From: Bacillota bacterium
GTDB taxonomy: Bacteria > Bacillota > Clostridia > Christensenellales > SZUA-584
NCBI GenBank assembly: GCA_023396555.1
Contig: JAEWWC010000058.1
Coordinates: 1 to 58,103, forward strand
Length of the DNA stretch: 58,103 nucleotides
Direction of reading: 5' to 3'
Part shown: positions 1,408 through 38,615 of the stretch, piece after piece
Layout: each line of letters begins with the position of its first letter
How positions within the stretch are numbered: the stretch's first letter is position 1
Program-made: the position numbers and the translations under genes
The notes under the pieces: model-generated
The model's input: the letters and a program-made list of their open reading frames with translations, nothing else
The model's database searches: none
Told to the model about the DNA's origin: nothing

Positions 1408-1523
1408 AGGTGTGCTGCGATATTTCCTCGATTTTTTGCTGTCATGTTATATCAAACTATTATGTGCGAAGGGACTTTGGCTACATTCCGTTTCGTCTCT
1501 TATGCAGAAAGGAACATATAAAT

Positions 1524-3086
1524 ATGAATATGAACGACGCGTATCTTGGCATTGAACTGGGCTCCACACGTATTAAGGCTGTGCTGATAGACAAAATGCA
1601 TCGTCCGATTGCATCCGGTGACCATACCTGGGAAAATCGCTTTGAGGATGGCAAATGGACATATGCTCTGGACGATGTCTGGAACGGCATTCAGGACTGC
1701 TACGCGAATCTGGCCAAGGATGTTAAACAAAAATTCGGCTGCGAATTGGAGCAGGTGGGGGCCATCGGCGTTTCGGCGATGATGCATGGATACATGGCGT
1801 TCGGTCAGGACGATAATCTGCTGGCGCCGTTCCGCACCTGGCGCAACACCATTACCGGCGAAGCCGCGAAAAAGCTTACGACGCTGTTCGACTTCAACAT
1901 TCCCCAGCGCTGGAGCATCGCGCATTTGTATCAGAGCATACTGAACAACGAGCCGCATGTTGCCGAGATAAAATATCTCACCACGCTTTCAGGATATATT
2001 CACTGGCAGCTCACGGGCAAAAAGGTGCTCGGCATCGGCGATGCTTCGGGCATGTTCCCGCTGGACGACAAAACGCACTCCTACGACAGCGCCATGATAG
2101 GAAAGTTTGATCAGCTGAACGCGGGACTTCCCTGGAAACTGGCGGACATACTGCCCTGTATTGCAATGGCGGGAGAAAAGGCGGGGACGCTGAGCGAAGC
2201 GGGTGCACGGCTTCTCGACCCGAAAGGAACGCTGAAAGCCGGTATACCCATGTGTCCGCCCGAGGGTGATGCAGGGACAGGCATGGTGGCGACCAACAGC
2301 GTACGTCAGCGGACGGGCAACATCAGTGCGGGGACCAGCGTGTTTGCCATGATCGTGCTGGAAAACGCGCTGAAGAGGGTGCACGCCGAGGTGGATATGG
2401 TGACCACGCCCGCGGGCGATCCGGTGGCGATGGTACACTGCAACAACTGCCTTGGCGATCTGGACGCGTGGGTGAAGCTGCTGGGCGAAGCGGGCAGGCT
2501 GCTGGGCGCGGAATTTGACATCAATGCGCTTTACAGAAAGCTACTTAATGAGGCGCTCAGCGGTAATGCCGACTGCGGCGGACTGCTGTCCTACAACTAT
2601 ATATCGGGAGAGCATGTGACAGAGCTGGAGGAGGGGCGGCCGATGTTTGTACGGACGACGGACTCATCCTTCACACTGGCCAACTTCATGAGAACGCATC
2701 TGTATTCGTCTTTGGCTTCACTCAAAATGGGCATGAGGATACTGATCGAGGAGGAAGGCGCGTCCATCGATTCGATCACAGGACACGGCGGTTTCTTTAA
2801 AGTCACAAACGTGGGCCTTCGCATCATGGCGACTGCGATGGGCGTTCCGGTCACCGTCATGGCGACAGCCGGAGAAGGCGGCCCCTGGGGTATCGCAATA
2901 CTTGCAGCTTATATGATGAACAAGCAGGGCGAAACCCTGGCGGATTACTTAAGCGACAGCGTGTTCACGGACAGCGAACGCACCACCGTCGCGCCGGAGG
3001 ATTCGGATATAGAAGGGTTCGGAGCATTCATGCAGCGGTATAGAGCCGGGCTTGATATCGAACGCAAGGCAGTTGAATCCATATAA
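1524..3086 (+). CDS. FGGY-family sugar kinase, probably an L-ribulokinase (AraK-type)
   Basis: I trimmed the ORF to the ATG at 1524, which follows AGAAAGGAAC. It reads [23 protein letters not shown] (actin-fold phosphate-1 motif) and shows FGGY N and C domains. The context is araD/araR. Confidence 0.75.
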
Positions 3087-3176
3087 GCGATAAGGATATA
3101 CATCTTACTCAAAATGTAACGGGCAGCCATCATCGGGCTGCCCGTTTTATGTTTTAATTGATATCTGAACAGCAGG

Positions 3177-4259
3177 TTATTTACTGCTCTGGAAAGGGCG
3201 GCAGGAGTCCCGTGCGACCAGCTCGGGATGGAATACCCGGCAGGGGATGCCGGCGCGGCCTTCAAGCATATCCACCATGAACCGGGCCGCCATACGCCCC
3301 ATTTCCTTCATTGGGTGGCGTATGGTAGTCAGCTTCGCGGTGCTGTGGGTTGTCAGCGAATCATCATATCCCACTACCGCTAAGTCCTGCGGCACCTTGA
3401 GTCCGCGTTCCGCCGCCGCCTGCAGCACCTGCAGCGCGCACTGGTCGTTGTAGCACACGATGGATGACGGGCGGTCTTGGCGGTTCAGCAGGTTCTGCGC
3501 GAACGTGAACGGATAGTCGTACATGTTGCTCGTTTCGTATTCACCGACGGAGACAGCCTGTGCGCCGCCGCTCGCTTCGATGGCGTCCAGAAAGCCTGCC
3601 CGTCGCATCACGCCCTGTTTGTCGTCCGTCTTGAACAGGCCGGCCAGCCGGCGATGCCCCAGAGACAGCAGGTGCTGAGTCAGCAGGCGGCCACCTTCCC
3701 GGTCGTCCATCACCGTGTACGCACTATCAAAATCGTCGTAACAGGCGTTGAGGTATACAAAGCGGGTGCCTTTTCGCCGAAGCTCCTCCAGCAGCTCCCG
3801 GTTGGTATTGGGATGGGCGCTGCGTGTGGGCTCGATGATGATGCCCGCTACGCCCAGTTCCAGCATGCTGGTTAAGTGTTGCGCCTCGCTTTGCTTGGAG
3901 TTGCCGGTGTTGCACAGCAGCATCATATACCCTTTGTCGGAAAGCACCTGCTCGATGCCGGAAATGATGCCCGGGAAAACAAATTCGGATATGTAGGTGG
4001 TGATCACCGCCACGATCTGGCGGGGCTGCGTGTTCCGGTATCCGCAGAACGTCCCTTTTCCTTGTTCCTTGTAGAGCAGGCCTTCGGCGGTGAGCTCCGC
4101 GAAAGCCTGCCGCACCGTCTGACGGCTGACGCCGAACTTGACCATCAGGTCGTGTTCGGAGGGGAGCTGTTGTCCATATATGATCAGGCCGTCCCGTATC
4201 AGATGGCGGACGTAATCCTTGACGATCTGATATTTCGGCAGTTTTGTCAGGTTTGCCAT
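3177..4259 (-). CDS. araR: Arabinose repressor AraR (GntR-type HTH fused to a LacI/PBP1-type sugar-binding domain)
   Basis: Start placed at MANLTKLPKYQ (ATG 4259-4257). N-terminus: LPSEHDLMVKFGVSRQTVRQAFAELTAEGLLYKEQGKGTF. C-terminal periplasmic-binding-fold region: IVAVITTYISEFVFPGII ... LAVVGYDD. Confidence 0.85.
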   Translation of the reverse strand: MANLTKLPKYQIVKDYVRHLIRDGLIIYGQQLPSEHDLMVKFGVSRQTVRQAFAELTAEGLLYKEQGKGTFCGYRNTQPRQIVAVITTYISEFVFPGIISGIEQVLSDKGYMMLLCNTGNSKQSEAQHLTSMLELGVAGIIIEPTRSAHPNTNRELLEELRRKGTRFVYLNACYDDFDSAYTVMDDREGGRLLTQHLLSLGHRRLAGLFKTDDKQGVMRRAGFLDAIEASGGAQAVSVGEYETSNMYDYPFTFAQNLLNRQDRPSSIVCYNDQCALQVLQAAAERGLKVPQDLAVVGYDDSLTTHSTAKLTTIRHPMKEMGRMAARFMVDMLEGRAGIPCRVFHPELVARDSCRPFQSSK

Positions 4260-8443: not shown

Positions 8444-10060
8444 TTAGTCGTTGGTAATAGAAAAAGCGATATTGGTGGCGTGGTCAGCCGCGCGTTCAAG
8501 TGTTGCCACCATGTTGGTGAATATCACGCCTGTCTGCGGGTCGCAGGCTTTTTCCTGCAAGCGGTCAATATGGCTGTTTAAAAGAGCCTTTTTCATCATA
8601 TCAACTTCCGACTCCAGTGCATCTACAACGGCCAAGCTGGACTTGCTTCGTTTTTCGAATGCCTCCAGGCTGGCTTTCAGCGTTTCCATCGTTCTGTCCG
8701 ACATTTTAACAAGCTCCGCTTCGGCGTCGGGTGACAGCTTCGCGCGCTTCTCGATCATGGTCAGCGCGTATTCGGCGATGTTTTCAGCCAGATCACCGAT
8801 GCGTTCCATATCGATGATGACGTGGTGCAGGCTGCCCAACGTTTTGAGGTCGTGTTCCGAGAGATCAAGACCACGGAACTCAATCATGTAATGCGTGATA
8901 TTGTGGCTCAAATAGTCGACCGTTTTTTCGATTTCCATCACGCGCCTCGCTTTTTGCTCGTCCCGGTTGAAAAATGCGTCCAATGACCGCTTCATGTTGC
9001 TGACGGCGATATCACCCATGCGGTTAAGCTCTTTGAGCGTTTGCGTCAGCGCGATGGAAGGCGTCTGTGCGATGCGTTCATCCAGATAAACGAGTCTCTT
9101 TTCCACGCGATCGGGCGCATGCTTTTCCGGAATAATGCGCGTAATGAGCCGCACCATCAATCGAGCAAACGGGAACAGCAGTACTGTGACGGTCACGTTG
9201 AATATCGTATGGAAGTTTGCGATCTGCCGGGATACGTTATCCGGCGATATGGAGGCGACCCAACTAATAATGGAGGGGAAGACTGCGAGGATTGCCAGAT
9301 AGATCATTGTTCCGAGTATGTTGAACATCAGGTGGATGCCGGCGGTGCGCCGCGAATTGGCGTTGGTGCCGATAGCCGCCAGTATCGCGGTGATGCATGT
9401 CCCGATATTCTGGCCGAGTACGACATAGACTGCCGAATCGAGCCCAATCAGCCCGAGGCCCGCGAGCGCTTGCAATATACCGACGGAGGCCGACGAACTC
9501 TGAATGACAGCAGTGAATATTGCGCCGAATAGCACGCCAACCACAGGGTTTTGAAAACTGACGAGCAGGTTGCGGAAGGCTTCCACTTCCCTCAACGGTT
9601 CCATCGCTTGGGACATTAGAGTCAGACCCACAAACAGTATGCCAAAGCCCAAGATGATCTCACCGATACGGGCGAAAATGCGTTTTCTGAGGAAGACTGT
9701 GAATAGCATGCCTGCAAAAAGTATAAGCGGCGCGATGTCTGAGAGCTTGAAGGCAATGAGTTGCGCGGTGATCGTGGTACCGATGTTGGCACCCATGATT
9801 ACGCCGGTAGCCTGCAGCAGCGTCATAAGGCCGGCATTGACAAAACCGACGACCATTACGGTCGTTGCGGAAGAGCTTTGAACGATAGCAGTAACACCGG
9901 CGCCTACGCCGACAGCTGCAAAGCGATTGCCCGTCAGAACCTCAAGAACACGGCGCATGCGGTCGCCAGCAGCGTTTTCCAGACCGTCGGACATCATCTT
10001 CATTCCATACAGGAACATGCCCAGACCGCCCAGAAGCAAGAACACCGAGAAAATACTCAT
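8444..10060 (-). CDS. Na/Pi cotransporter family protein with a C-terminal PhoU-like domain
   Basis: GGLGMFLYGMKMMSDGLE and a duplicated QSSSA motif (IVQSSSATT, VIQSSSASV). The C-terminal helical PhoU-like repeats include ERIGDLAENIA and ERAADHATNIA. Confidence 0.85.
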   Translation of the reverse strand: MSIFSVFLLLGGLGMFLYGMKMMSDGLENAAGDRMRRVLEVLTGNRFAAVGVGAGVTAIVQSSSATTVMVVGFVNAGLMTLLQATGVIMGANIGTTITAQLIAFKLSDIAPLILFAGMLFTVFLRKRIFARIGEIILGFGILFVGLTLMSQAMEPLREVEAFRNLLVSFQNPVVGVLFGAIFTAVIQSSSASVGILQALAGLGLIGLDSAVYVVLGQNIGTCITAILAAIGTNANSRRTAGIHLMFNILGTMIYLAILAVFPSIISWVASISPDNVSRQIANFHTIFNVTVTVLLFPFARLMVRLITRIIPEKHAPDRVEKRLVYLDERIAQTPSIALTQTLKELNRMGDIAVSNMKRSLDAFFNRDEQKARRVMEIEKTVDYLSHNITHYMIEFRGLDLSEHDLKTLGSLHHVIIDMERIGDLAENIAEYALTMIEKRAKLSPDAEAELVKMSDRTMETLKASLEAFEKRSKSSLAVVDALESEVDMMKKALLNSHIDRLQEKACDPQTGVIFTNMVATLERAADHATNIAFSITND

Positions 10061-10123
10061 TCAATACCCTCCACCATTAATTGTAAAAAAATCGTTAAGC
10101 TATCATCAAGCTTTTGCAAATTT

Positions 10124-10152
10124 ATTATAAGATATGTTCTTAGCTTTGTCAC
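10124..10152 (-). promoter_or_regulatory. Promoter of the Na/Pi cotransporter gene
   Basis: The minus strand reads GTGACA, a 17-nt spacer, then TATAAT. Confidence 0.45.
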
Positions 10153-10656
10153 TCTTATAATACATCCTGCTTACGCATTGTAAATTAGTGGAATGAAAAT
10201 ATTCCTGCAAGCATTGAAAATAATCTCTTGACATTGTTATTGCTGAAATATACTATAAATACAGTCATAAACTAGATCTTTTGCGGATCTTAAAAGCTTC
10301 AACCAATCTTCCTTTCAAAGCCCTGTGCAACCGGGGCCTTATTTTTTAGCCGAAAAACAGGTCATTTAATATATGAGTCTTCTCATTCGTTGATTTAATA
10401 GTTAGCAATGTAGTTTGCACAACACTGATATTTATCTTATATTCTTGAGTCGTAAATGAAGGAAGAGAGCGCCAAAAAACGAGTTAAGAATGTATAATCA
10501 AATTACCATAACTTATTATAACTTATAACTGATGTGTTGGGTTTGTCATCTTAAAAGCTGATTACAGGCGGAATGAGAATAAATTGGTATAGAGGAAACG
10601 AAAAATAGGCGATATCACCGGGTTCGACAGGCGAAAAATATAACGTGCCAAGTCAG

Positions 10657-12522
10657 CTAACTGATGGGCGATGTCCCCATTATGTGCAGCTTGAGAGCGG
10701 TATAATCTGATATATTCAGGCTTCCATCGTTGTTGACGTCTCCCGCCCGCATCGAGACGGGTGACAGCCCCCTCTTTCCCAGTATACTAAGGCGAACGTA
10801 AGTATAATCGGCAATGCTAATAGAATTGTCACCATTGACATCTCCGCGTACGGCGATGAACAGGGAATCCAAGATTACAGATTCGTTTTTTAAACAGACA
10901 AACATGCCTGTTTTGACTGTTCCGCTCGTGACTTCCTGCTGGTTTGCGTTACGGATCATGATGGTCCCGCCACGTCCTGTAAAATATGACGCCAGTGTTT
11001 CAACAGACGTACCCAAGGGTACGCCATACACCACGCGATTTCTTCGGTCCACAGAGTAACGACCGGACAAAATAGCAGGAATAGACATGATGGCTGAATT
11101 AGCATCCACACGGCCATATCCGTAATTGTTATCCCGACCGGGCGCTCCAAGATCAACCGCTGAATTGTATAAAGCTTCCTTAACATCGTTTGCATTGAGA
11201 CTGTAGTTTGCAGACAGCAAAAGCGCCGCCACACCGGCGACAACGGGAGATGCCATCGAAGTACCGGCCATCCAAGCGTAACTGGACAAACCTGTTTTGG
11301 GATCATAATATGTGGACAGTATCCAGTCCGAAGAAACATCACCGTCGCCGCCCGGTGCGGATATGTCCTTCTGCGATCCGTAGTTAGAGTAATAGGCGCG
11401 GGTGTCATATCTGCTGGTGGCGATAACGGATACCACATTCGCTTGGTCGCTGGGGTAGTGGTCGGTGGTGGTGTTGTCGTTGCCGGCAGCGGCCAAAACA
11501 AGGATGCCGTTATTAACGGCTTCATCGATGGCGTTCGATTCCGCGTAATCCAGATAGTAACTGCCGAGGCTCATATTGATGATATCGGCGTCGTTGCTGA
11601 TGGCATAGTTGATGCCCTCGACAATATCTGCCGTGGTTGCCCACCAGTCGGTGCCGTCGGTATCGAATACGTCCACCGTGATGAGGCTGACGCCGGGAGC
11701 CACGCCCGCCACGCCTAAGCCGTTGTTGGCGGTTGCCGCAATGATACCGGCTACATGCGTACCGTGGCCGTCGTCGTCGTCGGCTCTGCCGTCATAGTCC
11801 ACGACATCCGTCTGATATAGTATCCGGCCCGCAAGATCCGGATGCTTCAAGTCTACGCCGGTATCCAGCACCGCGACGCGTACGCCGGAATTGCCCATTG
11901 TTGTGTCCCATGCCGATGGGGCATTGATGGTATTCAGATGCCATTGGAGGCCAAAGCCGGGATCGTTCGCATAAGCATCTGTGCCGCCATTGCCCGGCGG
12001 AAAGCCTCCCGTGACCGGTATGCGCTCCGTATCGTCCAGATAATATATATAGTTGGGCTGAGCATACAGTACATCCGGCTGCTCCTCCAACTCATCGATG
12101 TAGCCCGTTATCGTCTCTCCGGCAGGAACCTCGGCGATGTGCAGATTATCGGTTATCTCATCCTGCTCCTCAGAATCATCCAGCGCTTGCTGGACGATGG
12201 CATCGCTGGCACTCAGTTTGAACTGGACGAGCACCTCGCCCGCAACGCACGGATATCCTTCCACCGTCACCACATCCGCGCCGCTCAGCCCGCGCTCCGG
12301 CACGGTGGCTTCGGCATCCGCAGCCATGACAGCCTTGGGAGTCGGGGGCGGCTCAGGCTCGGTTGTCTGTACTGAAGGCGTCGGTGTCTGCGCCGACGGC
12401 TCCTCGGCCAACACGAGGGGTACATCCCAAGTAAATACCGAAAAGGCCAGCAACAACGAAAGCACGCCTGCTTTTATTCGCCTGCCTGTATTTTGGCAGT
12501 ACCGGTCGTCGAATTTTATCAT
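10657..12522 (-). CDS. Secreted S8 subtilisin-family serine protease with a C-terminal conserved module plus dockerin
   Basis: Start at MIKFDD (ATG 12522, after GAGAGGAAGG), followed by a signal peptide. Catalytic triad: VAVLDTGVD, HGTHVAGIIAA, GTSMASPVVAG. The C-terminus carries two dockerin Ca-binding segments, GDVNGDNSISIADYTYVRLSILG and GDVNNDGSLNISDYTALKLHIMG. Confidence 0.85.
   Translation of the reverse strand: MIKFDDRYCQNTGRRIKAGVLSLLLAFSVFTWDVPLVLAEEPSAQTPTPSVQTTEPEPPPTPKAVMAADAEATVPERGLSGADVVTVEGYPCVAGEVLVQFKLSASDAIVQQALDDSEEQDEITDNLHIAEVPAGETITGYIDELEEQPDVLYAQPNYIYYLDDTERIPVTGGFPPGNGGTDAYANDPGFGLQWHLNTINAPSAWDTTMGNSGVRVAVLDTGVDLKHPDLAGRILYQTDVVDYDGRADDDDGHGTHVAGIIAATANNGLGVAGVAPGVSLITVDVFDTDGTDWWATTADIVEGINYAISNDADIINMSLGSYYLDYAESNAIDEAVNNGILVLAAAGNDNTTTDHYPSDQANVVSVIATSRYDTRAYYSNYGSQKDISAPGGDGDVSSDWILSTYYDPKTGLSSYAWMAGTSMASPVVAGVAALLLSANYSLNANDVKEALYNSAVDLGAPGRDNNYGYGRVDANSAIMSIPAILSGRYSVDRRNRVVYGVPLGTSVETLASYFTGRGGTIMIRNANQQEVTSGTVKTGMFVCLKNESVILDSLFIAVRGDVNGDNSISIADYTYVRLSILGKRGLSPVSMRAGDVNNDGSLNISDYTALKLHIMGTSPIS
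10660..10845 (-). other. Dockerin module (two EF-hand-like segments) of the S8 protease
   Basis: A duplicated D-x-N-x-D-G-x-x-x-x-x-D-Y loop-helix motif. Confidence 0.75.
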
Positions 12523-12713
12523 GGCTACCTTCCTCTCATAAAAATTATCGCATTTATGAGGTATTATCTGAAACCGCAAAACCGGAAAATTACAAATTTT
12601 ATATGAATATGATACAGGAAACAGTTTAAATACGCAACAAACTTGTATTAATTTGTGATAAAGCCTGCCTTGCGGCATACACATATGATAGAAACCGAAA
12701 GGGAAACCGCAGC

Positions 12714-14036
12714 GTGAAAACGATGAAGGAAGCTCTGCTTGAAAAAATAGTGCACCGGGAGCTGAGGGTCGGCGTGGTGGGGTTGGGGTATGTCGGCCTG
12801 CCGCTGGCTGTGGAAAAGGCGAAAGCAGGATTTAAGACGGTCGGCTTTGACATACAGGAGAAGAAGGTGCGCATGGTGAACACCGGGCAAAACTACATCG
12901 GCGATGTGGTGGACGCGGATTTGAACCGGCTGATAAACGAAGGCATGCTCTACGCTTCCTCCGACTTCTCGTTCGTCCGAGACGTTGATTTCGTCGCGAT
13001 ATGCGTACCAACGCCGTTAGATAAGCATCAGCAGCCGGACATTAGCTGTGTGTGCGACTCGGCAGCCAGCATCGCGCGGTATCTGAAAAGGGAGTCGGTC
13101 GTGGTGCTGGAATCCACCACGTACCCTGGCACCACGGAGGAACTACTCAAGCCGATACTGGAGAAGGAGAGCGGCCTCATTTGCGGCACGGACTTCTATC
13201 TGGGTTTTTCGCCCGAGCGCGTTGACCCCGGTAACCTGATCTACAAGACGAAGAATACGCCCAAGGTGGTGGGGGCGATAGGCACGGACGCGTGTGAGGT
13301 CATTTCGTTCATGTACCGGCAAGTGCTGCAGGGGGATGTGAAGGAGGTGTCGTCGCCCGCGGTGGCCGAGATGGAGAAGATACTGGAGAACACGTACCGC
13401 AACGTCAACATCGGCCTCATCAACGAGATTGCCATGCTGTGCGACAGAATGAGCATCAACGTCTGGGAGGTGATCGACGCAGCGGGCACCAAGCCCTACG
13501 GCTTTCAGGCATTTTACCCCGGCCCCGGTCTTGGCGGCCACTGCATCCCGCTCGACCCGTATTACCTCTCATGGAAGGCGCGGGAATACGGCTTCCACAC
13601 CTCGATGATCGAGGCGGCGGGCATGGTGAACGACCACATGCCCGACTACTGTGTGGAGCGCATCAGCCGTATGCTCAATCGGCGTCAAAAGGCGCTGAGC
13701 TGCGCTGCCGTGCTGGTGCTGGGCGTGGCCTACAAGCAGGATATCGACGACTACCGGGAGAGTCCGGCGATCAAGGTGATTGAGAAGCTGGAGGAGCAAG
13801 GGGCGGCGGTGTCCTTCTACGACCCGTATGTCAGCGAATACGTCCATGAGGGGAAGCGCAGGCGGAGCATCGGCGCACTGACGGAGGAGACGCTGAAGCA
13901 GGCGGACGCGGTGGTGGTGACGGCAGCACATAAGGCAGTGGATTATGAGCTGGTTGCGCGGTGCGCAGCGGTAGTATTCGATGCGAAGAACGCCATGAAG
14001 AATGTCCGATGCCGAGATAATATCGAGCTTTTATAA
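12714..14036 (+). CDS. wbpA: UDP-N-acetyl-D-glucosamine 6-dehydrogenase (nucleotide-sugar dehydrogenase, WbpA-like)
   Basis: GTG start. N-terminal Rossmann motif VGVVGLGYVGLP and catalytic GGHCIPLDPYY. First gene of a wbpA-B-E-D-like set. Confidence 0.75.
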   Translation: MKTMKEALLEKIVHRELRVGVVGLGYVGLPLAVEKAKAGFKTVGFDIQEKKVRMVNTGQNYIGDVVDADLNRLINEGMLYASSDFSFVRDVDFVAICVPTPLDKHQQPDISCVCDSAASIARYLKRESVVVLESTTYPGTTEELLKPILEKESGLICGTDFYLGFSPERVDPGNLIYKTKNTPKVVGAIGTDACEVISFMYRQVLQGDVKEVSSPAVAEMEKILENTYRNVNIGLINEIAMLCDRMSINVWEVIDAAGTKPYGFQAFYPGPGLGGHCIPLDPYYLSWKAREYGFHTSMIEAAGMVNDHMPDYCVERISRMLNRRQKALSCAAVLVLGVAYKQDIDDYRESPAIKVIEKLEEQGAAVSFYDPYVSEYVHEGKRRRSIGALTEETLKQADAVVVTAAHKAVDYELVARCAAVVFDAKNAMKNVRCRDNIELL

Positions 14037-14050
14037 GGGAGTTAATACCT

Positions 14051-15136
14051 ATGGGGCTGAGATATGCGCTGATCGGGTGCGGCTCTATCGCACTCAACCA
14101 TTTCACCGCCGCGCTGAACAACGGCCTTGATATTTCGGGGCTTTGCGACATCGATGTGCATTCCGTGAAAAGCCTGACGGAAAAGGCGTGTTTTTACGGC
14201 GCGGCTGCAGCGTACACGGATTATCGGGCGATGCTGAGGGAAGCGCGGCCTGAGTTGGTGGCAATCACCACGGATAACGGCAACCACGCCCGCATCGCGC
14301 TGGACTGCATCGAGGCGGGCTGCCATGTGATCGTCGAGAAGCCCATTGCGCTGTCACTCAAGGACGCGGACGCCGTGATTGCCGCGGGGCGGGAGCGGGG
14401 CGTGTGCGTGTGCGCGTCCCATCAAAACCGCTTCAACGCGTCCGTTCAAATGATGCGCAGTGCCATCGGCGCGGGGCGGATGGGACGGTTGCTGTATGGA
14501 ACGACGCATGTGCGCTGGAACAGGGGGCAGGAATACTATGCCAAAGCGCCGTGGCGGGGAACATGGGCGCAGGACGGCGGCATGCTGGTCAACCAGTGTA
14601 TCCATCACATCGACCTGCTTCTCTGGCTGATGGGCGGCAAGGCGACGGAGGTGTTTGCTTACACGGACAATCTCAGCCACCAGTATATCGAGACGGAGGA
14701 TATGGGGTTGGCGTTGGTGAAATTCGCGGGCGGCGCGTACGGCGTTATCGAGGGAACGACTGATGTTTTCCCGAGGAATCTGGAGGAGACGCTGTATGTG
14801 TTTGGCGAGAAGGGCACGATGAAGGCGGGAGGCAAGGCACTCTCCCGCATCGAGGAATGGCGATTTGAGGACGGCCTGGATGATGACGAGGCGCTGAACG
14901 CGCTGAACGGGGAAGGCTGGCTGATCGCCGGTCATACCGCGCTGTATGCGGATGTGCTCCGCGCGATCCGCACAAAGACGCGGCCGCTGGCGGACGGCGA
15001 AGCCGGGCGGTGCGCATTGGAGCTGGCGCTGGCGATCCACAAGTCGGCGTCGGAGGGGCGGCCAGTGTGCCTGCCGCTCACGGATTTTTCCGTCGAGGAT
15101 ATAATGGGACATTTTAAGCAACGAGCAGAGGAATGA
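14051..15136 (+). CDS. wbpB: Gfo/Idh/MocA-family oxidoreductase (WbpB-like UDP-GlcNAcA 3-oxidase)
   Basis: MGLRYALIGCGSIALNHF NAD-binding N-terminus and EKPIALSL. Its position between the dehydrogenase and the aminotransferase supports the call. Confidence 0.65.
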   Translation: MGLRYALIGCGSIALNHFTAALNNGLDISGLCDIDVHSVKSLTEKACFYGAAAAYTDYRAMLREARPELVAITTDNGNHARIALDCIEAGCHVIVEKPIALSLKDADAVIAAGRERGVCVCASHQNRFNASVQMMRSAIGAGRMGRLLYGTTHVRWNRGQEYYAKAPWRGTWAQDGGMLVNQCIHHIDLLLWLMGGKATEVFAYTDNLSHQYIETEDMGLALVKFAGGAYGVIEGTTDVFPRNLEETLYVFGEKGTMKAGGKALSRIEEWRFEDGLDDDEALNALNGEGWLIAGHTALYADVLRAIRTKTRPLADGEAGRCALELALAIHKSASEGRPVCLPLTDFSVEDIMGHFKQRAEE

Positions 15137-15137
15137 T

Positions 15138-16259
15138 ATGCAGTTTATCGATTTGAGCAGGCAGTGCAGCCGTCTGGAGGTGGACATCCGCGCCAGACTG
15201 GACGCCGTATACCGGCATCAACGGTTCATCATGGGGCCGGAGGTCAAGGAGCTGGAGCAGCGGCTGGCGGAGGACACCGGCAGGCGGCATGTGGTGACGT
15301 GCGCCAACGGAACCGACGCGCTGACGCTGGCGTTGATGGCATACGGACTGAGCGCGGGCGATGCGGTGTTCGTACCGGCGTTCACTTTCTTCGCATCCGC
15401 TGAATGCGTCAGCGCGGCTGGCGGGACGCCGGTGTTTGTGGATGTGGATCCCGACACGTTCAACATCTGCCCCGAAGCGTTGGAGAAGGCCGTTGCCGCA
15501 ACGCTGGAGCGGGGAGCACTGCGCCCCCGCGCCGTGATACCGGTGGATCTGTTCGGGCTGCCCGCAGATTACGACCGCCTGCTGCCCATCGCCGAACGGT
15601 ATGGCCTGTTCGTGCTGGAGGACGCCGCGCAGAGCTTCGGCGGCGTTTACAGCGGCAAAAAGGCGTGCGCCTTTGGCCACGTATCCGCCACCTCATTCTT
15701 CCCCGCCAAGCCGCTGGGGTGCTGGGGCGACGGTGGCGCGGTGTTCACGGACGACGACGCGCTCGCGGAGCGGCTGGCGTCCATCCGCGTCCACGGGCAG
15801 GGCAAGGATAAGTACGACAACGTGCGCATCGGGCTCAATTCGCGGCTGGACACGATGCAGGCGGCGATACTGCTCGCAAAGCTGGGCGTGTTTGACGACG
15901 AGCTGAGTGCGCGCAACCGCGCGGCGGCGGCCTATACGGCGCGGCTGGGCACTGCCGTCAAAACGCCGCACATTCCGGCAGACGCCGTATCCGCGTGGGC
16001 GCAGTATACGCTGACAGCGCGTAGCGCAGCACACAGGGAGGCGTTGCTGCGAGAGCTGAAAGCGCAGGGGATACCAACAGCAGTCTATTACCCGACGCCG
16101 CTGCATCTGAGCACGGCTTACAAGCATCTGAATTATAGCGAGGGAAGCCTGCCTGTCTGCGAAGACCTGAGCCGCCGCGTGCTGAGTCTGCCGATGCACC
16201 CGTATCTGACGGATGAAGAGATAGCGCGGGTCAGCGGCGCGGTTCTGGCGTTGTGCTGA
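15138..16259 (+). CDS. wbpE: DegT/DnrJ/EryC1-family PLP aminotransferase (WbpE-like)
   Basis: MQFIDLSRQ...FIMGPEVKELEQRLAE...CANGTDALTLAL...SFFPAKPLGCWGDGGAVFTDDD...NSRLDTMQAAILL is collinear with my memory of P. aeruginosa WbpE. Confidence 0.8.
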   Translation: MQFIDLSRQCSRLEVDIRARLDAVYRHQRFIMGPEVKELEQRLAEDTGRRHVVTCANGTDALTLALMAYGLSAGDAVFVPAFTFFASAECVSAAGGTPVFVDVDPDTFNICPEALEKAVAATLERGALRPRAVIPVDLFGLPADYDRLLPIAERYGLFVLEDAAQSFGGVYSGKKACAFGHVSATSFFPAKPLGCWGDGGAVFTDDDALAERLASIRVHGQGKDKYDNVRIGLNSRLDTMQAAILLAKLGVFDDELSARNRAAAAYTARLGTAVKTPHIPADAVSAWAQYTLTARSAAHREALLRELKAQGIPTAVYYPTPLHLSTAYKHLNYSEGSLPVCEDLSRRVLSLPMHPYLTDEEIARVSGAVLALC

Positions 16260-16300
16260 AAGACGGCAAGAACCTACACGAAGAAAGGCGGGGAGCATCC

Positions 16301-16861
16301 ATGAGCTATTATATGCACGAAAGCAGCATCATCGACGACGGTGTGAAGATCGGCGACGGCACGAAGATATGGCATTTTTGTCACGTGCAAAACGGCGCGG
16401 AGATAGGCCGGGATTGTATGCTGGGGCAGAACGTATATATCGGCAGCGGCGTGAAAATCGGCAACGGGGTGAAGCTGCAGAACAACGTATCGGTGTACGA
16501 GGGTGTGGAGCTGGAGGATGGCGTGTTCTGTGGCCCGTCCATGGTGTTCACCAACGACCTGACACCCAGAAGCCTGTACCCCAAGGAAAAGGGCTGCGCA
16601 GTCAGGACGCTGGTGCGGCAGGGCGCCACTATCGGCGCGAACGCCACCATCGTATGCGGAGTAACCATCGGCAGGTGGGCGCTGGTGGCGGCGGGGGCGG
16701 TGGTCGCCAAGGATGTGCCCGACTACGCGCTGGTACGTGGAACGCCCTCGTCTGTAGTGGGGTGGGTATGCGAATGTGGAAAGCCGCTGAAGGACGGCTT
16801 TCAATGCCGAAGCTGCGGCAGAAAATATAACCCGGACGGCGGTCGGCTGACAGAGGAATAG
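16301..16861 (+). CDS. wbpD: Left-handed beta-helix N-acetyltransferase (WbpD-like)
   Basis: ATG at 16301 after AAAGGCGGGGAG. MSYYMHESSIIDDGVKIGDGTKIWHFCHV...NNVSVYEGVELEDGVFCGPSMVFTND...GATIGANATIVCGVTIG closely parallels WbpD. Confidence 0.8.
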   Translation: MSYYMHESSIIDDGVKIGDGTKIWHFCHVQNGAEIGRDCMLGQNVYIGSGVKIGNGVKLQNNVSVYEGVELEDGVFCGPSMVFTNDLTPRSLYPKEKGCAVRTLVRQGATIGANATIVCGVTIGRWALVAAGAVVAKDVPDYALVRGTPSSVVGWVCECGKPLKDGFQCRSCGRKYNPDGGRLTEE

Positions 16862-17098
16862 AAATCGAAATCTTCCGAAAAGATCCCAAGCCTTAGCGGC
16901 TCATTATTTGATACGTTTTGTCGTTTAAAAGCGATTGAAATTGATTTTCACTCGCTTTTTGCATAAAGAAATTGATTTTTACTGTGATGTATGCTATATG
17001 TATATAAATATATTAAGAATATGTGACGCAAATATTACAAAAAACCATTTCAAAAAATGCTTGCTGTCGACGGATCAAAGACTGCAAAACAGGAGGAA

Positions 17099-19423
17099 AT
17101 GATGCGGAAGAAAATACTGTGGCTGGCTCTCTGTGTACTCATGTTGCTCTCTTTGTTTCCGATATCATCGGCGTTTGCAGCAAGCCCGTATGACAGAATC
17201 CGTGTTAAGCTGTCCATAGGCACTCCCACCAAGTTTTCATTTCTGGTAGACGGGAACTACAGCGTTGCCGGAAAGGCGCTGGAACGGCAGCTTTATACCG
17301 TTAAAGTTGAGGGCGGCCAGCTGAAGCTTTATCTGGGTAGCTCTCTAGTGTCCGGCGGCTCCACGATATATCTGACCCAGCACCAGATGACGCAAGCGCA
17401 AAGGAATGAGAACCTCAACAATTCTATTTGGCTGGCCAACACCAGCCAAGGCGACCGGTCTTATATCGGCGACATGTCGTTTTCCATACAAGGCGGCGTG
17501 ATTCAGCTGGTCAACAACCTGGGGCTTGACCAATATCTGTACGGCGTGGTGCCGCACGAGATGAGCGATTCCTTCCCGCTGGAGGCACTGAAAAGCCAGG
17601 CGGTGGCCGCGCGCAACTACGCGGTCAGTAAAATCAGCGGCTCCGGCACCTACGACCTGACGGACCTTTCATCGGTTGACCAGGTTTACAAGGGGTACGA
17701 TCCGACGTTAACGAACGCCATTGCGGCGGTGGACGCGACGGCGGGCAAGGTGATGACCTACGGCGGCAGCGTCATAACGGCGTACTATTCGGCGTCCAAC
17801 GGCGGCATGACGGATATTCCGTATCATCGCTGGGGAGGCGGCGCGAATTGGGTGTACTACGATATCCAACCGGATCCGTTTGACATTGCCAATCCGTCAA
17901 GCCTGTACGAGACTCTCTATTTTCCCGCGGTCAATACCGAGGGAAATGTGACGTCGGGCGGCAACACCGGAACGATGCCCAGCACAGCCATTGCTACGAA
18001 CTATATTAAGCAGGCGATACTGGACAGTGGGCAGCTATCCGCTTATAGCGTAACGGGTATCAACCAGTTTGCGCTCACCGGCATCAATGGGCTGTATGCC
18101 CACACCTACGATACCTTCAGCGGGCAGAATCATAGCCTGATGCCGTTTTCCGGAGTGAACAACTGCATTGACATGGTGCGCGCCACGGGCAGCTTCTCCG
18201 TGACGCTGCTGTCCAGCATGAACGGCGCAGCCGCTCCGGCGGAGAAGCCGACCGTGCCCGACGAGGGGACGAGCCTGGAGGAACCGGTTGCGCCGGATGA
18301 GGGGACGAGCCCGGAAGAACCGGTTGCGCCGGACGAAAGGACGAGCCCTGAGGAACCGTCCGTGCCGGATGAGGAGACGAGCTCTGAAGAACCGGATACG
18401 GCGGATGAGGGGGCTCGCGTCATTCTGGCAGGCGAAACGGATACCCAAATAGCGGACGTGCCGGCCGGGACGGTAGTCAGCGTGACGGGAGTGGACTTTT
18501 CGCTGCGCACGCTCAACGGTTCGGACGGCACCTCGGCGTACAAGGCATTTCAATCCACCAGTCTTGGCGTGGTGGTGGTGGAGCCGGTGTACAGCGGCAG
18601 CACGCTGACGGGCTACAACATCGCGCAGCGGCGCTATGGACACGGCATCGGCCTGTCGCAGCGTGGCGCGCAGCAGCGGGCCAAGGCGGTGTCGGAGGGC
18701 GGCGGCGGACAGACCTATGAGCAGATACTTGCGTTCTACTATCCGAGCACGGCGATTACCTCGCTGAATACCACAACGCCTTCGCAAACGGTGCTGGCAT
18801 CTGCCGGCTACACCAACGCCACGGTCGTTAATACGACGTCGCTGAACGTGCGCAGCGGGCCCGGAACCAACTATGGCAAAGTTGGGACGCTGCCGGGCGG
18901 CGCGCGCGTGGAGGCGATGGAAGCGGGTGTCGCGTCAAGCTGGTATATGATCGACTACGGCGGCACCGCCGCATATGTCCATAAAGACTACATTAAACAG
19001 GATACCAAGGCGCTGCTCTCCACCAAGTTTATTCGGCGCAACAACCTGCTTTACATCGGCGCCAACACGACCTGCAGCACGCTGGTCAGCAGCTTTGTGG
19101 GGTACAGCGGAACCATAACGGTACGCAACGCCTCCGGTACGGTGATATCCGGCAGCACCAAGGTGGGCGCCGGGGTAACGGTGACACTGATGAACGGGTC
19201 CACAACGCTGGATCAGGTGACGCTGTATCTGAAGGGCGACGTGAACGGAGACGGGGCGATAGGTATCGCGGATTATACCGCAATCCGCCTGCATATTCTC
19301 AACACCACTCCGCTCAATGGCTTCGGCGTCCAGATGGCGGATGTGGACGGCGACGGAGAAGTGGATATCATGGATTATACGTTGATTCGGTTGTATTTGC
19401 TGGGCCTGTGGTCAATCGGATAA
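17099..19423 (+). CDS. Secreted SpoIID/LytB-domain protein with an acidic Pro/Glu repeat linker, an SH3b domain, a conserved module and a dockerin
   Basis: Signal peptide MMRKKILWLALCVLMLLSLFPISSAFA. SpoIID/LytB core: YLYGVVPHEM, EALKSQAVAARNYA, YYSASNGGMT, GHGIGLSQRGA. SH3b: LNVRSGPGTNYGKVGTLPGGARVEAM. Dockerin: GDVNGDGAIGIADYTAIRLHIL ... DVDGDGEVDIMDYTLIRLYLLG. Confidence 0.85.
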   Translation: MMRKKILWLALCVLMLLSLFPISSAFAASPYDRIRVKLSIGTPTKFSFLVDGNYSVAGKALERQLYTVKVEGGQLKLYLGSSLVSGGSTIYLTQHQMTQAQRNENLNNSIWLANTSQGDRSYIGDMSFSIQGGVIQLVNNLGLDQYLYGVVPHEMSDSFPLEALKSQAVAARNYAVSKISGSGTYDLTDLSSVDQVYKGYDPTLTNAIAAVDATAGKVMTYGGSVITAYYSASNGGMTDIPYHRWGGGANWVYYDIQPDPFDIANPSSLYETLYFPAVNTEGNVTSGGNTGTMPSTAIATNYIKQAILDSGQLSAYSVTGINQFALTGINGLYAHTYDTFSGQNHSLMPFSGVNNCIDMVRATGSFSVTLLSSMNGAAAPAEKPTVPDEGTSLEEPVAPDEGTSPEEPVAPDERTSPEEPSVPDEETSSEEPDTADEGARVILAGETDTQIADVPAGTVVSVTGVDFSLRTLNGSDGTSAYKAFQSTSLGVVVVEPVYSGSTLTGYNIAQRRYGHGIGLSQRGAQQRAKAVSEGGGGQTYEQILAFYYPSTAITSLNTTTPSQTVLASAGYTNATVVNTTSLNVRSGPGTNYGKVGTLPGGARVEAMEAGVASSWYMIDYGGTAAYVHKDYIKQDTKALLSTKFIRRNNLLYIGANTTCSTLVSSFVGYSGTITVRNASGTVISGSTKVGAGVTVTLMNGSTTLDQVTLYLKGDVNGDGAIGIADYTAIRLHILNTTPLNGFGVQMADVDGDGEVDIMDYTLIRLYLLGLWSIG
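18254..18415 (+). repeat. About 36-bp coding tandem repeat (roughly 4 copies) encoding a PDEGTSxEEPVA linker
   Basis: VPDEGTSLEEPVAPDEGTSPEEPVAPDERTSPEEPSVPDEETSSEEP, read directly from the sequence. Confidence 0.8.
19235..19420 (+). other. Dockerin module of the SpoIID/LytB protein
   Basis: Duplicated Ca-loop/helix segments, as quoted for the parent CDS. Confidence 0.75.
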
Positions 19424-19459
19424 GCAGTAAGCGAAAAAACTGACCAAAACCGACAGCAG

Positions 19460-19489
19460 TTGACCTTACAGGTAACTTTGTATTATAAT
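19460..19489 (+). promoter_or_regulatory. Promoter of the Fn3-repeat protein gene
   Basis: TTGACC (19460-19465), an 18-nt spacer, then TATAAT (19484-19489). Confidence 0.55.
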
Positions 19490-19572
19490 GACAATAAAAT
19501 GGTGGTGTTGTACTTGTTTGGGACGGTTTTCAAGATTTTTTTGATAAAACATTTCTTTTGCGGAGGTTACTG

Positions 19573-22218
19573 ATGAAAAGACGTTTGTTGGTGGGAGCTG
19601 CGGTTATACTGTTGGTGCTCGTGACAGGAGTATCCATCGCTTTGGCTGTGGGCACAGCCAGCGTCAGCTTTTCCGGACCAACCACGGTAGAAGTGGGGAA
19701 AACATATACGTATAACTACACATTGCAGGTTAATTCGGCCTGCGCGGCAAACGCCAATATTGTCGTCGGCGGCGCGTTCGAAAAGTTATCCGGAGGCTCC
19801 GGGATTTTCTATGACTCTATAGAGAAGGGCAACACGACAGCGACCCTTTACGGAAGCGTGACAGTCAGAGTGCGGTCTGACGTGAACGCGGGAACACCCG
19901 GCACGATCACTCTTGGCGACAATAGCAAGGGCATTTATCTGGTATACCAAAACGGGGTGCTGCAAACCCCGGTTGAATTTGATGTGACGGGATCCTTAAC
20001 GGCGGCTGTGGCACCGACCGCGACCGCGACTGCTATCGGCTACGACTCCGTACGTCTGACATGGAACGCGATGACGGGTGCGACGGGGTATGAGATATTC
20101 CGATCTGTAGGAGTGAACGGCGGACTGACACTGTACGATACAACTACGCAGCCATCCTTTTTGGACACCGGGTTAGCCACGGGCACGCCGTACTATTACC
20201 GTATACGGCCTTATAGAATGAATGGGGAGGCAAAAGTATATGGTGGCTTGACGGGAGTTCTGTCGGCAACACCCACGTTGTCTACCGTCACCAATCCTGT
20301 GGCGGCCACAACGGAATACAACGTTATCACGCTGACATGGAACACGGTTCCCGGTGCGACAGGGTATGAAGTATTTCGGTCGGTGGGCGTGAACGGCGGG
20401 CTGACGCTGTACAAGACCATAACCGAGGCGTCCTATCAAGATACTGGGCTGCCGAGTGGCACGACGTGCTATTATCGGATAAGGGCGTATAGGACTGTAG
20501 GATCTACTAAGATATACGGTGGGTTGACCGGCACAGCTTTTTCCACCACAAAGACGCTGGGAACGGTGATAAATGCCAAGGCGGCAACAACAGATTTCAA
20601 TGTCATCACGCTGACATGGAATGCAGTAACAGATGCATCGGGATATGAGATATTCCGGTCTGTGGGAGTGAACGGTGGACTGACGCTGTACAAGACGGTC
20701 ACTGATGCGACCTATGTGGATACGGGACTACTGAGCGGAACAACATACTATTATCGGATAAGGGCCTACCGGACCGTTGGGGAAACAAAGGTGTACGGCG
20801 GCTTGACAGGTACTATCTACTCTACCACGCGGACACTTGGCACCGTAATGAATGCAAAAGCAGTATTGGGCGCCTATGATAGCATAGATGTAACTTGGAA
20901 CGCGGTAGTGGATGCGACGGGGTATGAGATATTCAGGTCTATGGGAGTGAATGGTGGACTGACGCTGTATGATACAACGACTGTGCCGAGCTTTACAGAT
21001 ACTAACTTGACAACGGGTACGCCGTATTATTACCGGATGAGAGCTTATCGTTTGGTGGGTGAAAGCAAGGTGTACGGTGGACTGACGGGAACGGTATCGG
21101 CAACGCCGACACTGGGGACAGTGGTAAACGCAACGGCTGTGGCGGTTAATCCTGTCAGCATCGGTCTGACGTGGAATGCGGTGCCCGGCGCAACAGGGTA
21201 TGAGATATTCCGTTCTGTGGGGGTGAACGGCGGGCTGACACTATACCGGACAATAACCGAGGTATCCTATACTGATACCGGGCTTGTTACCAATACGTCT
21301 CACTATTACCGAATAAGAGCCTATCGTATGGTCGGCGAAACCAAGGTATACGGAGGCTTGACGGGAACGGTATCGGCGATGCCGATACTGGGGACGATAA
21401 CTAACCCAAAAGCGGTGGCAAGCGATCCTGTCAGCATTGATCTGACATGGAATGCGGTGCCCGGCGCAACAGGGTATCAGATATTCCGGTCTGTAGGGGT
21501 GAACGGCGGGCTGACGCTGTATGATACAACGACTGACCCGTCCTATACGGATACAGGGCTAACCACAGGCGTTGCATGCTATTACCGGATGCGCGCTTAC
21601 TGGACGTCGGGTGATACCACGGTTTTCGGAGGCTTGACGGGAACGGTATCGGCGATGCCGATACTGGGGACGATAACTAACCCCAAAGCAGTGGCAAGCG
21701 ATCCTGTTAGCATCGATCTGACATGGAACGCGGTACCCGACGCAACCGGGTATGAGATATTTCGTTCTGTAGGCGTGAACGGTGGGCTGACACTGTACAA
21801 GACCACAACCGATCCGTCCTATACGGATACAGGGCTAACCACAGGCGTTGCATGCTATTACCGGATGCGCGCTTACTGGACGTCGGGTGACACCACAATA
21901 TACGGAGGGCTGACGGGCACGATATCGGCGACGCCGGCTTTAGGTACGGTGACGAATGCAAAAGCTACGGCGAGCAGTTCCGCCCGCGTCGACCTGGCAT
22001 GGAATGCAGTATCCGGTGCGACCGGATATGAGATATTCCGGTCTGTAGGCGTGAACGGCGGACTGACACTGTATAAGACCACAACCGACCCGTCCTATGC
22101 AGATACGGCATTGACCAAGGATGTTATATACTATTACCGGATACGGGCTTACTGGGCATCGGACGGAACCACGATATACGGAGGGTTAACGAACACGGTT
22201 TCGGCAAAGGCAATATGA
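19573..22218 (+). CDS. Secreted or membrane-anchored protein: N-terminal ~120-aa beta-sandwich-like domain followed by 8 tandem fibronectin type III-like modules
   Basis: ATG at 19573 after GGAGG, then MKRRLLVGAAVILLVLVTGVSIALA. Eight ~92-aa units each contain TWNAVPGATGYEIFRSVGVNGGLTLY...TGL..G..YYYRIRAY....T.(V/I)YGGLTG. Confidence 0.85.
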   Translation: MKRRLLVGAAVILLVLVTGVSIALAVGTASVSFSGPTTVEVGKTYTYNYTLQVNSACAANANIVVGGAFEKLSGGSGIFYDSIEKGNTTATLYGSVTVRVRSDVNAGTPGTITLGDNSKGIYLVYQNGVLQTPVEFDVTGSLTAAVAPTATATAIGYDSVRLTWNAMTGATGYEIFRSVGVNGGLTLYDTTTQPSFLDTGLATGTPYYYRIRPYRMNGEAKVYGGLTGVLSATPTLSTVTNPVAATTEYNVITLTWNTVPGATGYEVFRSVGVNGGLTLYKTITEASYQDTGLPSGTTCYYRIRAYRTVGSTKIYGGLTGTAFSTTKTLGTVINAKAATTDFNVITLTWNAVTDASGYEIFRSVGVNGGLTLYKTVTDATYVDTGLLSGTTYYYRIRAYRTVGETKVYGGLTGTIYSTTRTLGTVMNAKAVLGAYDSIDVTWNAVVDATGYEIFRSMGVNGGLTLYDTTTVPSFTDTNLTTGTPYYYRMRAYRLVGESKVYGGLTGTVSATPTLGTVVNATAVAVNPVSIGLTWNAVPGATGYEIFRSVGVNGGLTLYRTITEVSYTDTGLVTNTSHYYRIRAYRMVGETKVYGGLTGTVSAMPILGTITNPKAVASDPVSIDLTWNAVPGATGYQIFRSVGVNGGLTLYDTTTDPSYTDTGLTTGVACYYRMRAYWTSGDTTVFGGLTGTVSAMPILGTITNPKAVASDPVSIDLTWNAVPDATGYEIFRSVGVNGGLTLYKTTTDPSYTDTGLTTGVACYYRMRAYWTSGDTTIYGGLTGTISATPALGTVTNAKATASSSARVDLAWNAVSGATGYEIFRSVGVNGGLTLYKTTTDPSYADTALTKDVIYYYRIRAYWASDGTTIYGGLTNTVSAKAI
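20005..22215 (+). repeat. 8 tandem ~276-bp coding repeats (Fn3-like modules); units 6 and 7 are nearly identical
   Basis: The periodicity is visible in both DNA and protein. The string GGLTGTVSAMPILGTITNPKAVASDPVSIDLTWNAVP occurs twice, 276 bp apart. Confidence 0.9.
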
Positions 22219-28869: not shown

Positions 28870-28971
28870 GAAAGGTTGCACTTTGGGCCCAGCTACAGTA
28901 CAATTTGGGAAGCAATATTTTGGCGGCCAGCAGCCGATATTATGGATACAAGGATAGAGAAGGAGAAGAAC

Positions 28972-29964: not shown

Positions 29965-29969
29965 GTGGA

Positions 29970-30710: not shown

Positions 30711-30714
30711 AAGC

Positions 30715-33266: not shown

Positions 33267-33284
33267 GCGATTTTGGAGGACGAA

Positions 33285-38295: not shown

Positions 38296-38615
38296 ACCAG
38301 AACCTCCTCGCTATTATCTGGATAAATTGTATGGGCTGAATTGCCCTGTTGTCAAGGGAAAATGTCCGCAAAGCCCCGATGGGTTACCAGTTTGAGAGCC
38401 TCGCTTCGATAGAGCGGCAGATTCCATCACACCAACAGAATAATTTCGATTTTTAATTTAAAATAGTTTATGGAGAAATATTCTTGAAAAATCCAAACAA
38501 TGGGGATATAATATTACATAATCATTACAAAAGTTTCGCTGGCGTTATATTTTAGTCTTTCCAAGCCGGTTTGTTGGCTATAATAAGCAGGCGAGGAGCT
38601 GTGTTGAAAACAGTT

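Follow-up and report, generated by a model that had tools for sequence, protein, structure and literature searches.

A small beta module joined to a type-I-like dockerin on three secreted proteins around a wall-glycan locus of a Clostridia genome

The contig JAEWWC010000058.1 (58,103 nucleotides; "the window" below means this whole stretch) encodes three secreted proteins, here called A, B and C, that share a cassette made of a beta module of about 75 residues followed directly by a two-repeat dockerin. Protein A is a subtilisin-type protease, protein B a SpoIID/LytB enzyme and protein C a protein with Big_2 and fibronectin-like regions. The three genes and the two halves of each cassette are placed as follows.

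10657 to 12684, minus strand: protein A, a secreted S8 subtilisin-type protease with a prodomain and the cassette at its end (Pfam); the longest open reading frame (ORF) has 675 aa
10849 to 11076, minus strand: beta module of cassette A, residues about 537–612 (module hidden Markov model (HMM), E 5e-30; AlphaFold2 (AF2) predicted local distance difference test score (pLDDT) 96.4)
10660 to 10848, minus strand: dockerin of cassette A, residues about 613–675 (Pfam; sequence and fold matches in the PDB)
17057 to 19423, plus strand: protein B, 788 aa, with a signal peptide, a SpoIID/LytB domain, SH3_3 and the cassette (Pfam, NCBIfam)
19007 to 19231, plus strand: beta module of cassette B, residues about 651–725 (module HMM, E 3e-26; alignments)
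19232 to 19420, plus strand: dockerin of cassette B, residues about 726–788 (Pfam Dockerin_1, 41.3 bits)
38571 to 40487, plus strand: protein C, a 638-aa ORF that runs from a signal peptide through two Big_2 domains, the internal cassette and a fibronectin-like region to a C-terminal domain of 170 aa
39252 to 39482, plus strand: beta module of cassette C, residues about 228–304 (module HMM, E 6e-29)
39483 to 39665, plus strand: dockerin of cassette C, residues about 305–365 (Pfam Dockerin_1, 27.9 bits)

An HMM scan of the six-frame translation recovers exactly three module-plus-dockerin cassettes in the window (E 1e-25 to 1e-31), and HMMs of each half, run on the same translation, find no further copy of module or dockerin there even at E<=10. 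By BLASTP the three proteins are alike solely over the ~135-residue cassette. Cassette A (residues 537–670) is 41% identical to that of B (652–783; E 2e-24) and 39% identical to residues 231–364 of protein C (E 4e-20), while cassettes B and C share 35% identity (E 3e-15). At the DNA level the three cassette genes have no repeat in common except a 68-nt stretch of 75% identity. A recent duplication or an assembly artefact was considered as the origin of the cassettes and is ruled out by the 35%–41% protein identity and the lack of a DNA repeat; on the same grounds we regard the cassettes as old, shuffled domains. An initial annotation, made from the sequence alone, had proposed that three otherwise unrelated proteins share a beta-rich module of ~75 residues and a dockerin. 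BLASTP, the HMM scan and Pfam bear this out, and the module is a real conserved domain, mostly strands in the AF2 model. In protein C the cassette does not close the chain: it is internal and is followed by the fibronectin-like region and the 170-residue C-terminal domain.

Outside the cassette the carriers show no similarity to one another by BLASTP. Protein A probably begins at the Met of MIKFDD.. (about position 12522), with a signal peptide, judged by eye, next; a Fervidolysin_NPro-like prodomain is recognised by Pfam, as is Peptidase_S8 at residues 266–524 (E 1e-58). In protein B the SpoIID_LytB assignment comes from NCBIfam TIGR02669 (159.9 bits against a cut-off of 83.3), and Pfam also reports SpoIID and SH3_3. 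A 36-bp tandem repeat of 4.4 copies at 18256–18412 (plus strand) encodes an acidic, Pro-rich insert, PDEGTSPEEPVA, in this protein; the split of the TIGR02669 match into two segments suggests that the repeat interrupts the SpoIID/LytB domain. In public assemblies protein C (P0031) is given a length of 627 aa. Its C-terminal domain matches Pfam Peptidase_C39 at E 0.046 (14 bits, under the cut-off of 22) and has no sequence relative in the PDB. By eye, a Cys (..KSACVITAY..) precedes a His (..DAHAVVA..), which is the expected order, and the domain is possibly a papain/C39-like peptidase. The earlier label "C39-like" thus has a Peptidase_C39 match behind it, but one below threshold and without a PDB relative.

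The curated Pfam gathering cut-off for Dockerin_1 (PF00404) is 22.9 bits, and all three segments exceed it: 39.2 bits in A (residues 614–668), 41.3 bits in B (residues 726–782) and 27.9 bits in C (residues 305–356). The dockerin of cassette A also matches solved cohesin-binding dockerins by sequence (5nrm_B, E 8e-7; also 2ccl_B and 1ohz_B). An AF2 model of cassette A, built from a ten-sequence alignment, has a pLDDT of 95.3 and a predicted template modelling score (pTM) of 0.88 for both domains, with helices at 89–99, 107–113 and 123–133 of the model. Compared by Foldseek, the dockerin half of this model fits 1ohz_B with a template modelling (TM) score of 0.95 and a root-mean-square deviation (rmsd) of 0.6 Å, 2ccl_B with TM 0.89 and 0.7 Å, and 5nrm_B with TM 0.85 and 1.8 Å.

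Each of the three dockerins has two D-x-[DN]-x-[DN]...D loops with canonical D1/N3/D5/D12 positions. These predicted calcium loops are DVNGDNSISIAD and DVNNDGSLNISD in cassette A, DVNGDGAIGIAD and DVDGDGEVDIMD in cassette B, and DVDGDGLTSVYE and DLNADGRVSITD in cassette C, where the first loop ends in E. By analogy with the solved dockerins, we infer that the domains would bind a cohesin. The spacing between loop starts is 34 residues in 97 of 100 cassettes of the family, and both dockerin repeats follow the consensus I10-T11-D12-Y13-T14-L15-[VI]16-[RK]17. Internal repeat symmetry of this kind is typical of dual-binding-mode dockerins, and the near-identical repeats suggest such a mode here. 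A reading of the segments as generic EF-hand or thrombospondin repeats that fail dockerin HMMs, foreseen as a way in which the proposal might fall, is ruled out: EF-hand Pfam models score far below Dockerin_1, and HMM, sequence and fold all say dockerin. The segments are genuine two-repeat type-I-like dockerins.

The other half of the cassette has no recognisable relative in the databases searched. At E<=10, Pfam gives nothing for the module of A, and weak unrelated matches far under cut-off for those of B and C; NCBIfam holds no family for it, and the PDB no sequence relative. A module-only AF2 model (53-sequence alignment, pLDDT 96.4) predicts a beta-sandwich of ~75 residues with seven strands (3–5, 9–11, 16–21, 33–35, 39–43, 60–65 and 68–78) and one helix (26–31). 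Foldseek against the PDB finds nothing significant for this model, the best match being the C-terminal domain (CTD) of RgpB at E 0.48 and TM 0.38. Homology to the known X modules (CipA X, ScaB/CttA X) was found neither by sequence nor by fold nor by family. Conserved features of the module are a T-G-M motif, an invariant Gly and a near-invariant Ser. Its last strand ends one residue before the first calcium loop, which leaves a linker of zero length; since there is no linker and the two-domain pTM is 0.88, module and dockerin are predicted to form one rigid dyad.

A word-index search with the module alone returned only the window's own protein, and the family was instead collected with exhaustive HMMER, using a module-only profile on 1.84 billion representatives (50%-identity clusters). 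This gave 1,540 clusters at E<=1e-3, of which 132 also pass at E<=1e-10. The dockerin follows the module directly in 132 of the 149 top members, and in 123 of those it lies at the extreme C-terminus; Pfam Dockerin_1 is present at 1e-5 in 58 of 64 sampled members. The association does not hold in the other direction. In a control set of 124 dockerin ORFs from 77 loci, mostly of rumen Bacteroidales and found by a dockerin-motif scan of contigs, the module is absent save in relatives of the window and in one weak case, a Clostridia metagenome-assembled genome. Hence dockerins do not in general come with the module.

The 64 sampled members also show what the cassette is attached to. Tallied by Pfam, their domains include Big_2 (18 members), the Listeria-Bacteroides repeat Flg_new (14), Big_3 (13), BspA-type leucine-rich repeats (LRR; 11), LRR_8 (10), Glug (8), Peptidase_S8 (7), SH3_3 (4), Cohesin (3) and SpoIID (2). 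The cassette marks secreted surface or adhesin-type proteins generally and is frequent on those of gut Clostridia; S8 and SpoIID cargoes are recurrent but a minority, and the tie to cell-wall or proteolytic enzymes drawn in the initial annotation is too narrow for a family whose cargo is mostly adhesin-like repeat proteins. The three members with a Pfam Cohesin link the family to cohesin networks. In one protein (P0082) the order is Cohesin, Cys-rich repeats, Big_3, module, dockerin, an arrangement that resembles an adaptor.

Members that lack the dockerin carry the module in tandem arrays. One (P0027) has ten copies and then an SLH domain at its end, and others (P0067, P0109, P0148, P0156 and P0147) end in a sorting domain of the type IX secretion system (T9SS; Por_Secre_tail). 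The beta module is common to Firmicutes-type and Bacteroidota-type surface proteins. These arrays raise the question of whether the module is itself the binding element, an Ig-like or carbohydrate-binding-module (CBM)-like domain for wall glycan or protein, with the dockerin recruiting partners or self-associating. The module does occur alone, in up to ten tandem copies, in SLH-anchored and T9SS-sorted proteins, it is strongly conserved at the T-G-M motif, the Gly and the Ser, and its want of any known relative makes a binding function conceivable. Tandem arrays beside C-terminal anchors are, however, typical of stalk or spacer Ig-like domains; the module is like no CBM or lectin in Pfam or the PDB; and a single copy welded to a dockerin in 89% of top members fits a supporting role. 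We consider a binding function quite unlikely. From its domain arrangements, the module reads in every setting as a stalk or pedestal element adjoining a surface-attachment domain.

Around the cassette genes the window has three further features.

12714 to 37081, plus strand: wall-glycan biosynthesis locus (Pfam of its ORFs)
37195 to 38295, minus strand: DUF3048 protein, forming a divergent pair with protein C (38571–40487)
19558 to 22218, plus strand: ORF neighbouring B, 886 aa, with a signal-anchor, an orphan N-terminal domain of ~118 aa and about ten Fn3-like repeats; the sole cohesin candidate in the window

Gene A lies immediately upstream of the glycan locus, gene B inside it and gene C ~1.5 kb downstream. 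The locus encodes a UDP-sugar dehydrogenase, an oxidoreductase, an aminotransferase, an acetyltransferase, GT2 enzymes, a Wzy_C protein of the polymerase/ligase type and a flippase, followed by a nonulosonic-acid pathway (PseB-like, CMP-transferase, NeuB, GNAT/GT28, DegT) and PMT-like, GtrA and GT2 proteins. Its first part (12714–16861, plus strand), with UDP-sugar dehydrogenase, GFO oxidoreductase, DegT and hexapeptide acetyltransferase, is typical of diacetamido-uronic acid synthesis; 28876–34409 (plus strand) holds a complete-looking pathway of the pseudaminic/legionaminic type that includes a fusion of GNAT and GT28-C. NCBI assembly GCA_023443505.1 contains this locus too, along with an identical protein C, and exact protein matches of the locus occur in several ENA and Logan metagenomes.

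Cassette genes stand beside wall-glycopolymer loci in the window, in L081/L082, in L079 and in L084. L079, from a distant relative, has genes for phosphoenolpyruvate (PEP) mutase, LicD, Glyphos_transf and DUF3048 and then a cassette gene, with the DUF3048/cassette-gene divergent pair repeated (8813–9853, minus strand; 10001–10528, plus strand). L084 has PEP mutase and a thiamine pyrophosphate enzyme, then an S8-Big_2-cassette protein. The placement of cassette genes around a wall-glycan locus, as first described, is therefore confirmed by Pfam of the window ORFs and recurs in other genomes; by gene context, which is correlative, it supports a functional link of the cassette to the cell envelope. 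The host looks like a non-fibrolytic, Gram-positive, spore-former-like gut Clostridium.

Several further observations were made at these loci. At L080 (ENA ERZ21831019 ctg7689l, 1466–3798) a B-like and a C-like gene are adjacent, whereas in the window the 19-kb glycan locus separates them; at L080 both genes are in fragments, probably through long-read frameshift errors. The window also has three tandem paralogous LytR-CpsA-Psr genes (50530–52506, 52765–54546 and 54729–56615, all on the minus strand). In each product an N-terminal membrane anchor is followed by the LCP domain, a linker rich in Pro and Thr and, at the C-terminus, a conserved domain of ~90 residues with the pattern GYRQY.PDGP.W.LY.K ... 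WRVNYE ... VDF, which has no Pfam assignment. At 47262–48643 (minus strand) a pair of genes for an IstB-like ATPase and a DUF6291 protein marks a strain-variable spot: in L081, the relative with an identical protein C, a Transposase_mut gene adjoins the pair (18158–21333) and the genes that lie between ClpB and the pair differ.

A cohesin partner was looked for in the window and beside other cassette genes. No sizeable ORF of the 58 kb has a Pfam Cohesin, nor does any have a glycoside hydrolase (GH) catalytic domain by Pfam. The initial annotation saw neither a glycoside hydrolase nor a classical scaffoldin and concluded that this is not a cellulosome; for all sizeable ORFs of the window Pfam bears out the observation, and the cargoes are not cellulosomal. 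No cohesin gene was seen beside the cassette genes in the other neighbourhoods inspected, which include those of three further family members, and jackhmmer searches started from the cohesin-like N-terminal domain of P0023 and from a C. thermocellum cohesin found no cohesin among the fetched proteins. An HMM of the P0082 cohesin, run on the window translated in six frames, put the N-terminal domain of the ORF at 19558–22218 ahead of every other segment, at an E of only 0.25.

One reading of this ORF is that its N-terminal domain is a highly divergent cohesin which, held up on a stalk of about ten Fn3 units, would be the receptor for all three cassettes in a self-contained local display system. 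Its repeats match GH85_C and fn3 models, and the last four form a 276-bp DNA tandem array of 81% identity (21028–22106). PDB matches of the protein to designed "Bagel" propellers were rejected as repeat-summed artefacts. In favour of a receptor, the beta-rich domain of ~118 aa is secreted or anchored, and its gene is directly downstream of B. In a Smith-Waterman comparison with the P0082 cohesin it reaches z 3.6, a score attained by 0.65% of 2,000 shuffles, with the first 36 residues alone aligned; two accepted cohesins compared in the same way give z 2.0. Because an accepted pair scores only z 2.0, such pairwise tests have little power either way. Against a receptor stand the HMM E of 0.25 and the short alignment, and the fact that the domain has no Pfam Cohesin match even at E<=10, no NCBIfam match, no PDB relative and, in a word-index search, no homologues. 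It is also shorter than typical cohesins, and the N-terminal anchor would place it at the stalk's membrane-proximal end, where a receptor would not be expected. Cohesins that are invisible to sequence models are documented (PMC13463774), yet we think it very unlikely that this domain is one that serves the three cassettes. A wider form of the same idea is a long shot: the cassette would be a general surface-display system of non-cellulolytic gut Clostridia with a role like that of SLH, LPXTG or CWB2, its receptors would be divergent cohesins (here the N-terminal domain of the ORF at 19558–22218, a gene of the same envelope locus), and the three cargoes would be docked on a wall decorated with nonulosonic acid.

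The dockerins may instead be orphans, with no cohesin partner at all, whose role is either to lend stability or help folding in a calcium-dependent way or to bind something other than a cohesin, for instance the nonulosonic-acid wall glycan or another envelope component. The window without a recognisable cohesin, the inspected neighbourhoods without an adjoining cohesin gene, and the recurrence of cassette genes beside wall-glycopolymer loci in several genomes would all agree with this. On the other side, the dockerins retain the full two-repeat architecture and the symmetric helix residues of cohesin-binding dockerins, and in three of the 64 family members a cohesin sits in the same polypeptide. 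We know of no dockerin-glycan interaction, which also counts against it, and nothing in our results supports the dockerin-glycan alternative offered in the initial annotation. The negative search carries limited weight as well: sequence models miss many ruminococcal cohesins, which have to be detected by structure (PMC13463774, 2026), and the absence of a cohesin from the window is a weak negative because cohesins often escape sequence HMMs in this way. All in all, we hold orphan dockerins to be a rather unlikely explanation.

Our preferred reading, to which we give a probability of about 55%, is that the cassette is a portable surface-attachment tag that resembles the X module–dockerin (XDoc) pairs of scaffoldins and has a new kind of X module. 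It draws on the domain identities, the fold, the family size, the module-dockerin linkage and the synteny, each of which comes directly from the analyses above, and on the three family members that also carry a Cohesin. The tag would have been shuffled onto an S8 protease, onto a SpoIID/LytB enzyme with an SH3 wall-binding domain and onto a Big_2/Fn3 protein. Its dockerin would bind, in a calcium-dependent manner, a cohesin-type module of an anchored surface or wall protein, one whose gene lies elsewhere in the genome or whose cohesin has diverged too far to be recognised; the beta module would support, space and stabilise the dockerin as a pedestal; and docking would hold all three proteins at the cell surface. 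The cohesin-dockerin display system first proposed for this locus is supported in part: the dockerins are genuine and the cargoes non-cellulosomal, but the cohesin it calls for was not found in the window by Pfam, and the display itself is deduced from what is known of the dockerin family.

Several points tell against this attachment tag. No cohesin was found in the window, either by Pfam or with the P0082 model. Orphan dockerins are common, as the 124 dockerin ORFs in mostly Bacteroidales loci illustrate, and Peer et al. in 2009 are said to have noted many dockerin-rich genomes with no recognisable cohesin. The module resembles no known X module, which makes the analogy with XDoc a functional one only, and the prediction of a rigid dyad is drawn from the pTM and the absent linker.

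Dockerins on non-cellulosomal proteins that are not carbohydrate-active enzymes (CAZymes) are already established; what is new here is the module family itself, its near-obligate fusion to a dockerin and its use on a SpoIID/LytB enzyme. For years dockerins outside cellulosomes have been listed with no clear idea of what they do, and the cassette gives a testable handle on them. One module welded to a dockerin in more than 1,000 clusters is a discrete, searchable tag, which may help to find the receptor and to map the surface-held proteins of gut Clostridia. With a confident predicted fold and no solved relative, the module merits a family entry and a structure. Should a cohesin turn out to be the receptor, the principle of cohesin-dockerin pairing would reach into envelope maintenance and proteolysis in non-fibrolytic commensals; should the receptor be something else, a new dockerin ligand would be revealed.

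Set against type-I cellulosomal dockerins, the recognition positions read I-T/A...Y-T-L-[IV]-R here and S-T...L-L-K-R there. In build, the dockerins of the window are like those of C. thermocellum Xyn10B (1OHZ/2CCL) and A. cellulolyticus Cel5 (5NRM), with two segments that each consist of a 12-residue calcium loop and a helix, the same fold (TM up to 0.95, rmsd 0.6–1.8 Å) and near-identical repeats. They differ in that their cargoes are not CAZymes, no Pro/Thr linker precedes them and a beta module is fused upstream. Unlike a cellulosome or amylosome, the window has no GH in its ORFs, and it is an S8 protease, a SpoIID/LytB enzyme and a Big_2 protein that bear the dockerins.

The closest parallel in architecture is with XDoc dyads, in which an Ig-like beta module also lies directly N-terminal to the dockerin (CipA X-DocII, 2B59; R. 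flavefaciens ScaB/CttA, 4WKZ) and which, in the known cases, attach to cell-surface anchoring cohesins. The module described here is smaller (~75 aa), however; the alignment of 2b59_B covers the dockerin alone (E 0.66), 4wkz_A aligns at an rmsd of 13.5 Å, and no X module is among the Foldseek matches. The dockerin scores as type I, and the dyad is found on enzymes and adhesins, whereas XDoc is found on scaffoldins.

Precedents for the cargoes come from several organisms. In R. flavefaciens FD-1, group-4 dockerins occur on peptidases, LRR proteins and transglutaminase-like proteins; one cluster of five genes there also shows conservation of the stretch before the dockerin, and a part in structuring the cell surface has been put forward (PMC2930009). 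The same species has a cohesin-XDoc protein with a papain-like module (PMC3573020). The serine protease Clo1313_0689 of C. thermocellum carries a double dockerin (PDB 8X39), and in Acetivibrio the scaffoldin ScaO has an S8-like peptidase domain, in a study that also describes non-cellulolytic "scaffoldin-containing" microbes (PMC11557425). The cassette family is like these in that its dockerins go with proteases of the subtilisin type, with LRR adhesins and with a putative papain-like module, and the suggested role of the known cases is to organise the cell surface and not to degrade fibre. Those organisms have demonstrated cellulosomes and scaffoldins, however, and in the window neither a GH nor a cohesin is seen. 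A fusion of SpoIID/LytB with a dockerin was not found in the literature searched.

A last comparison concerns the module without its dockerin. Where it stands last before the T9SS CTD, or upstream of SLH, its position is like that of the immunoglobulin-superfamily (IgSF) domain followed by the CTD in Porphyromonas RgpB (7PQ4 for the CTD). The structural match to that CTD is non-significant (E 0.48, TM 0.38) and we claim no homology; by analogy, the dockerless relatives suggest that the module is a generic pedestal next to an anchor.

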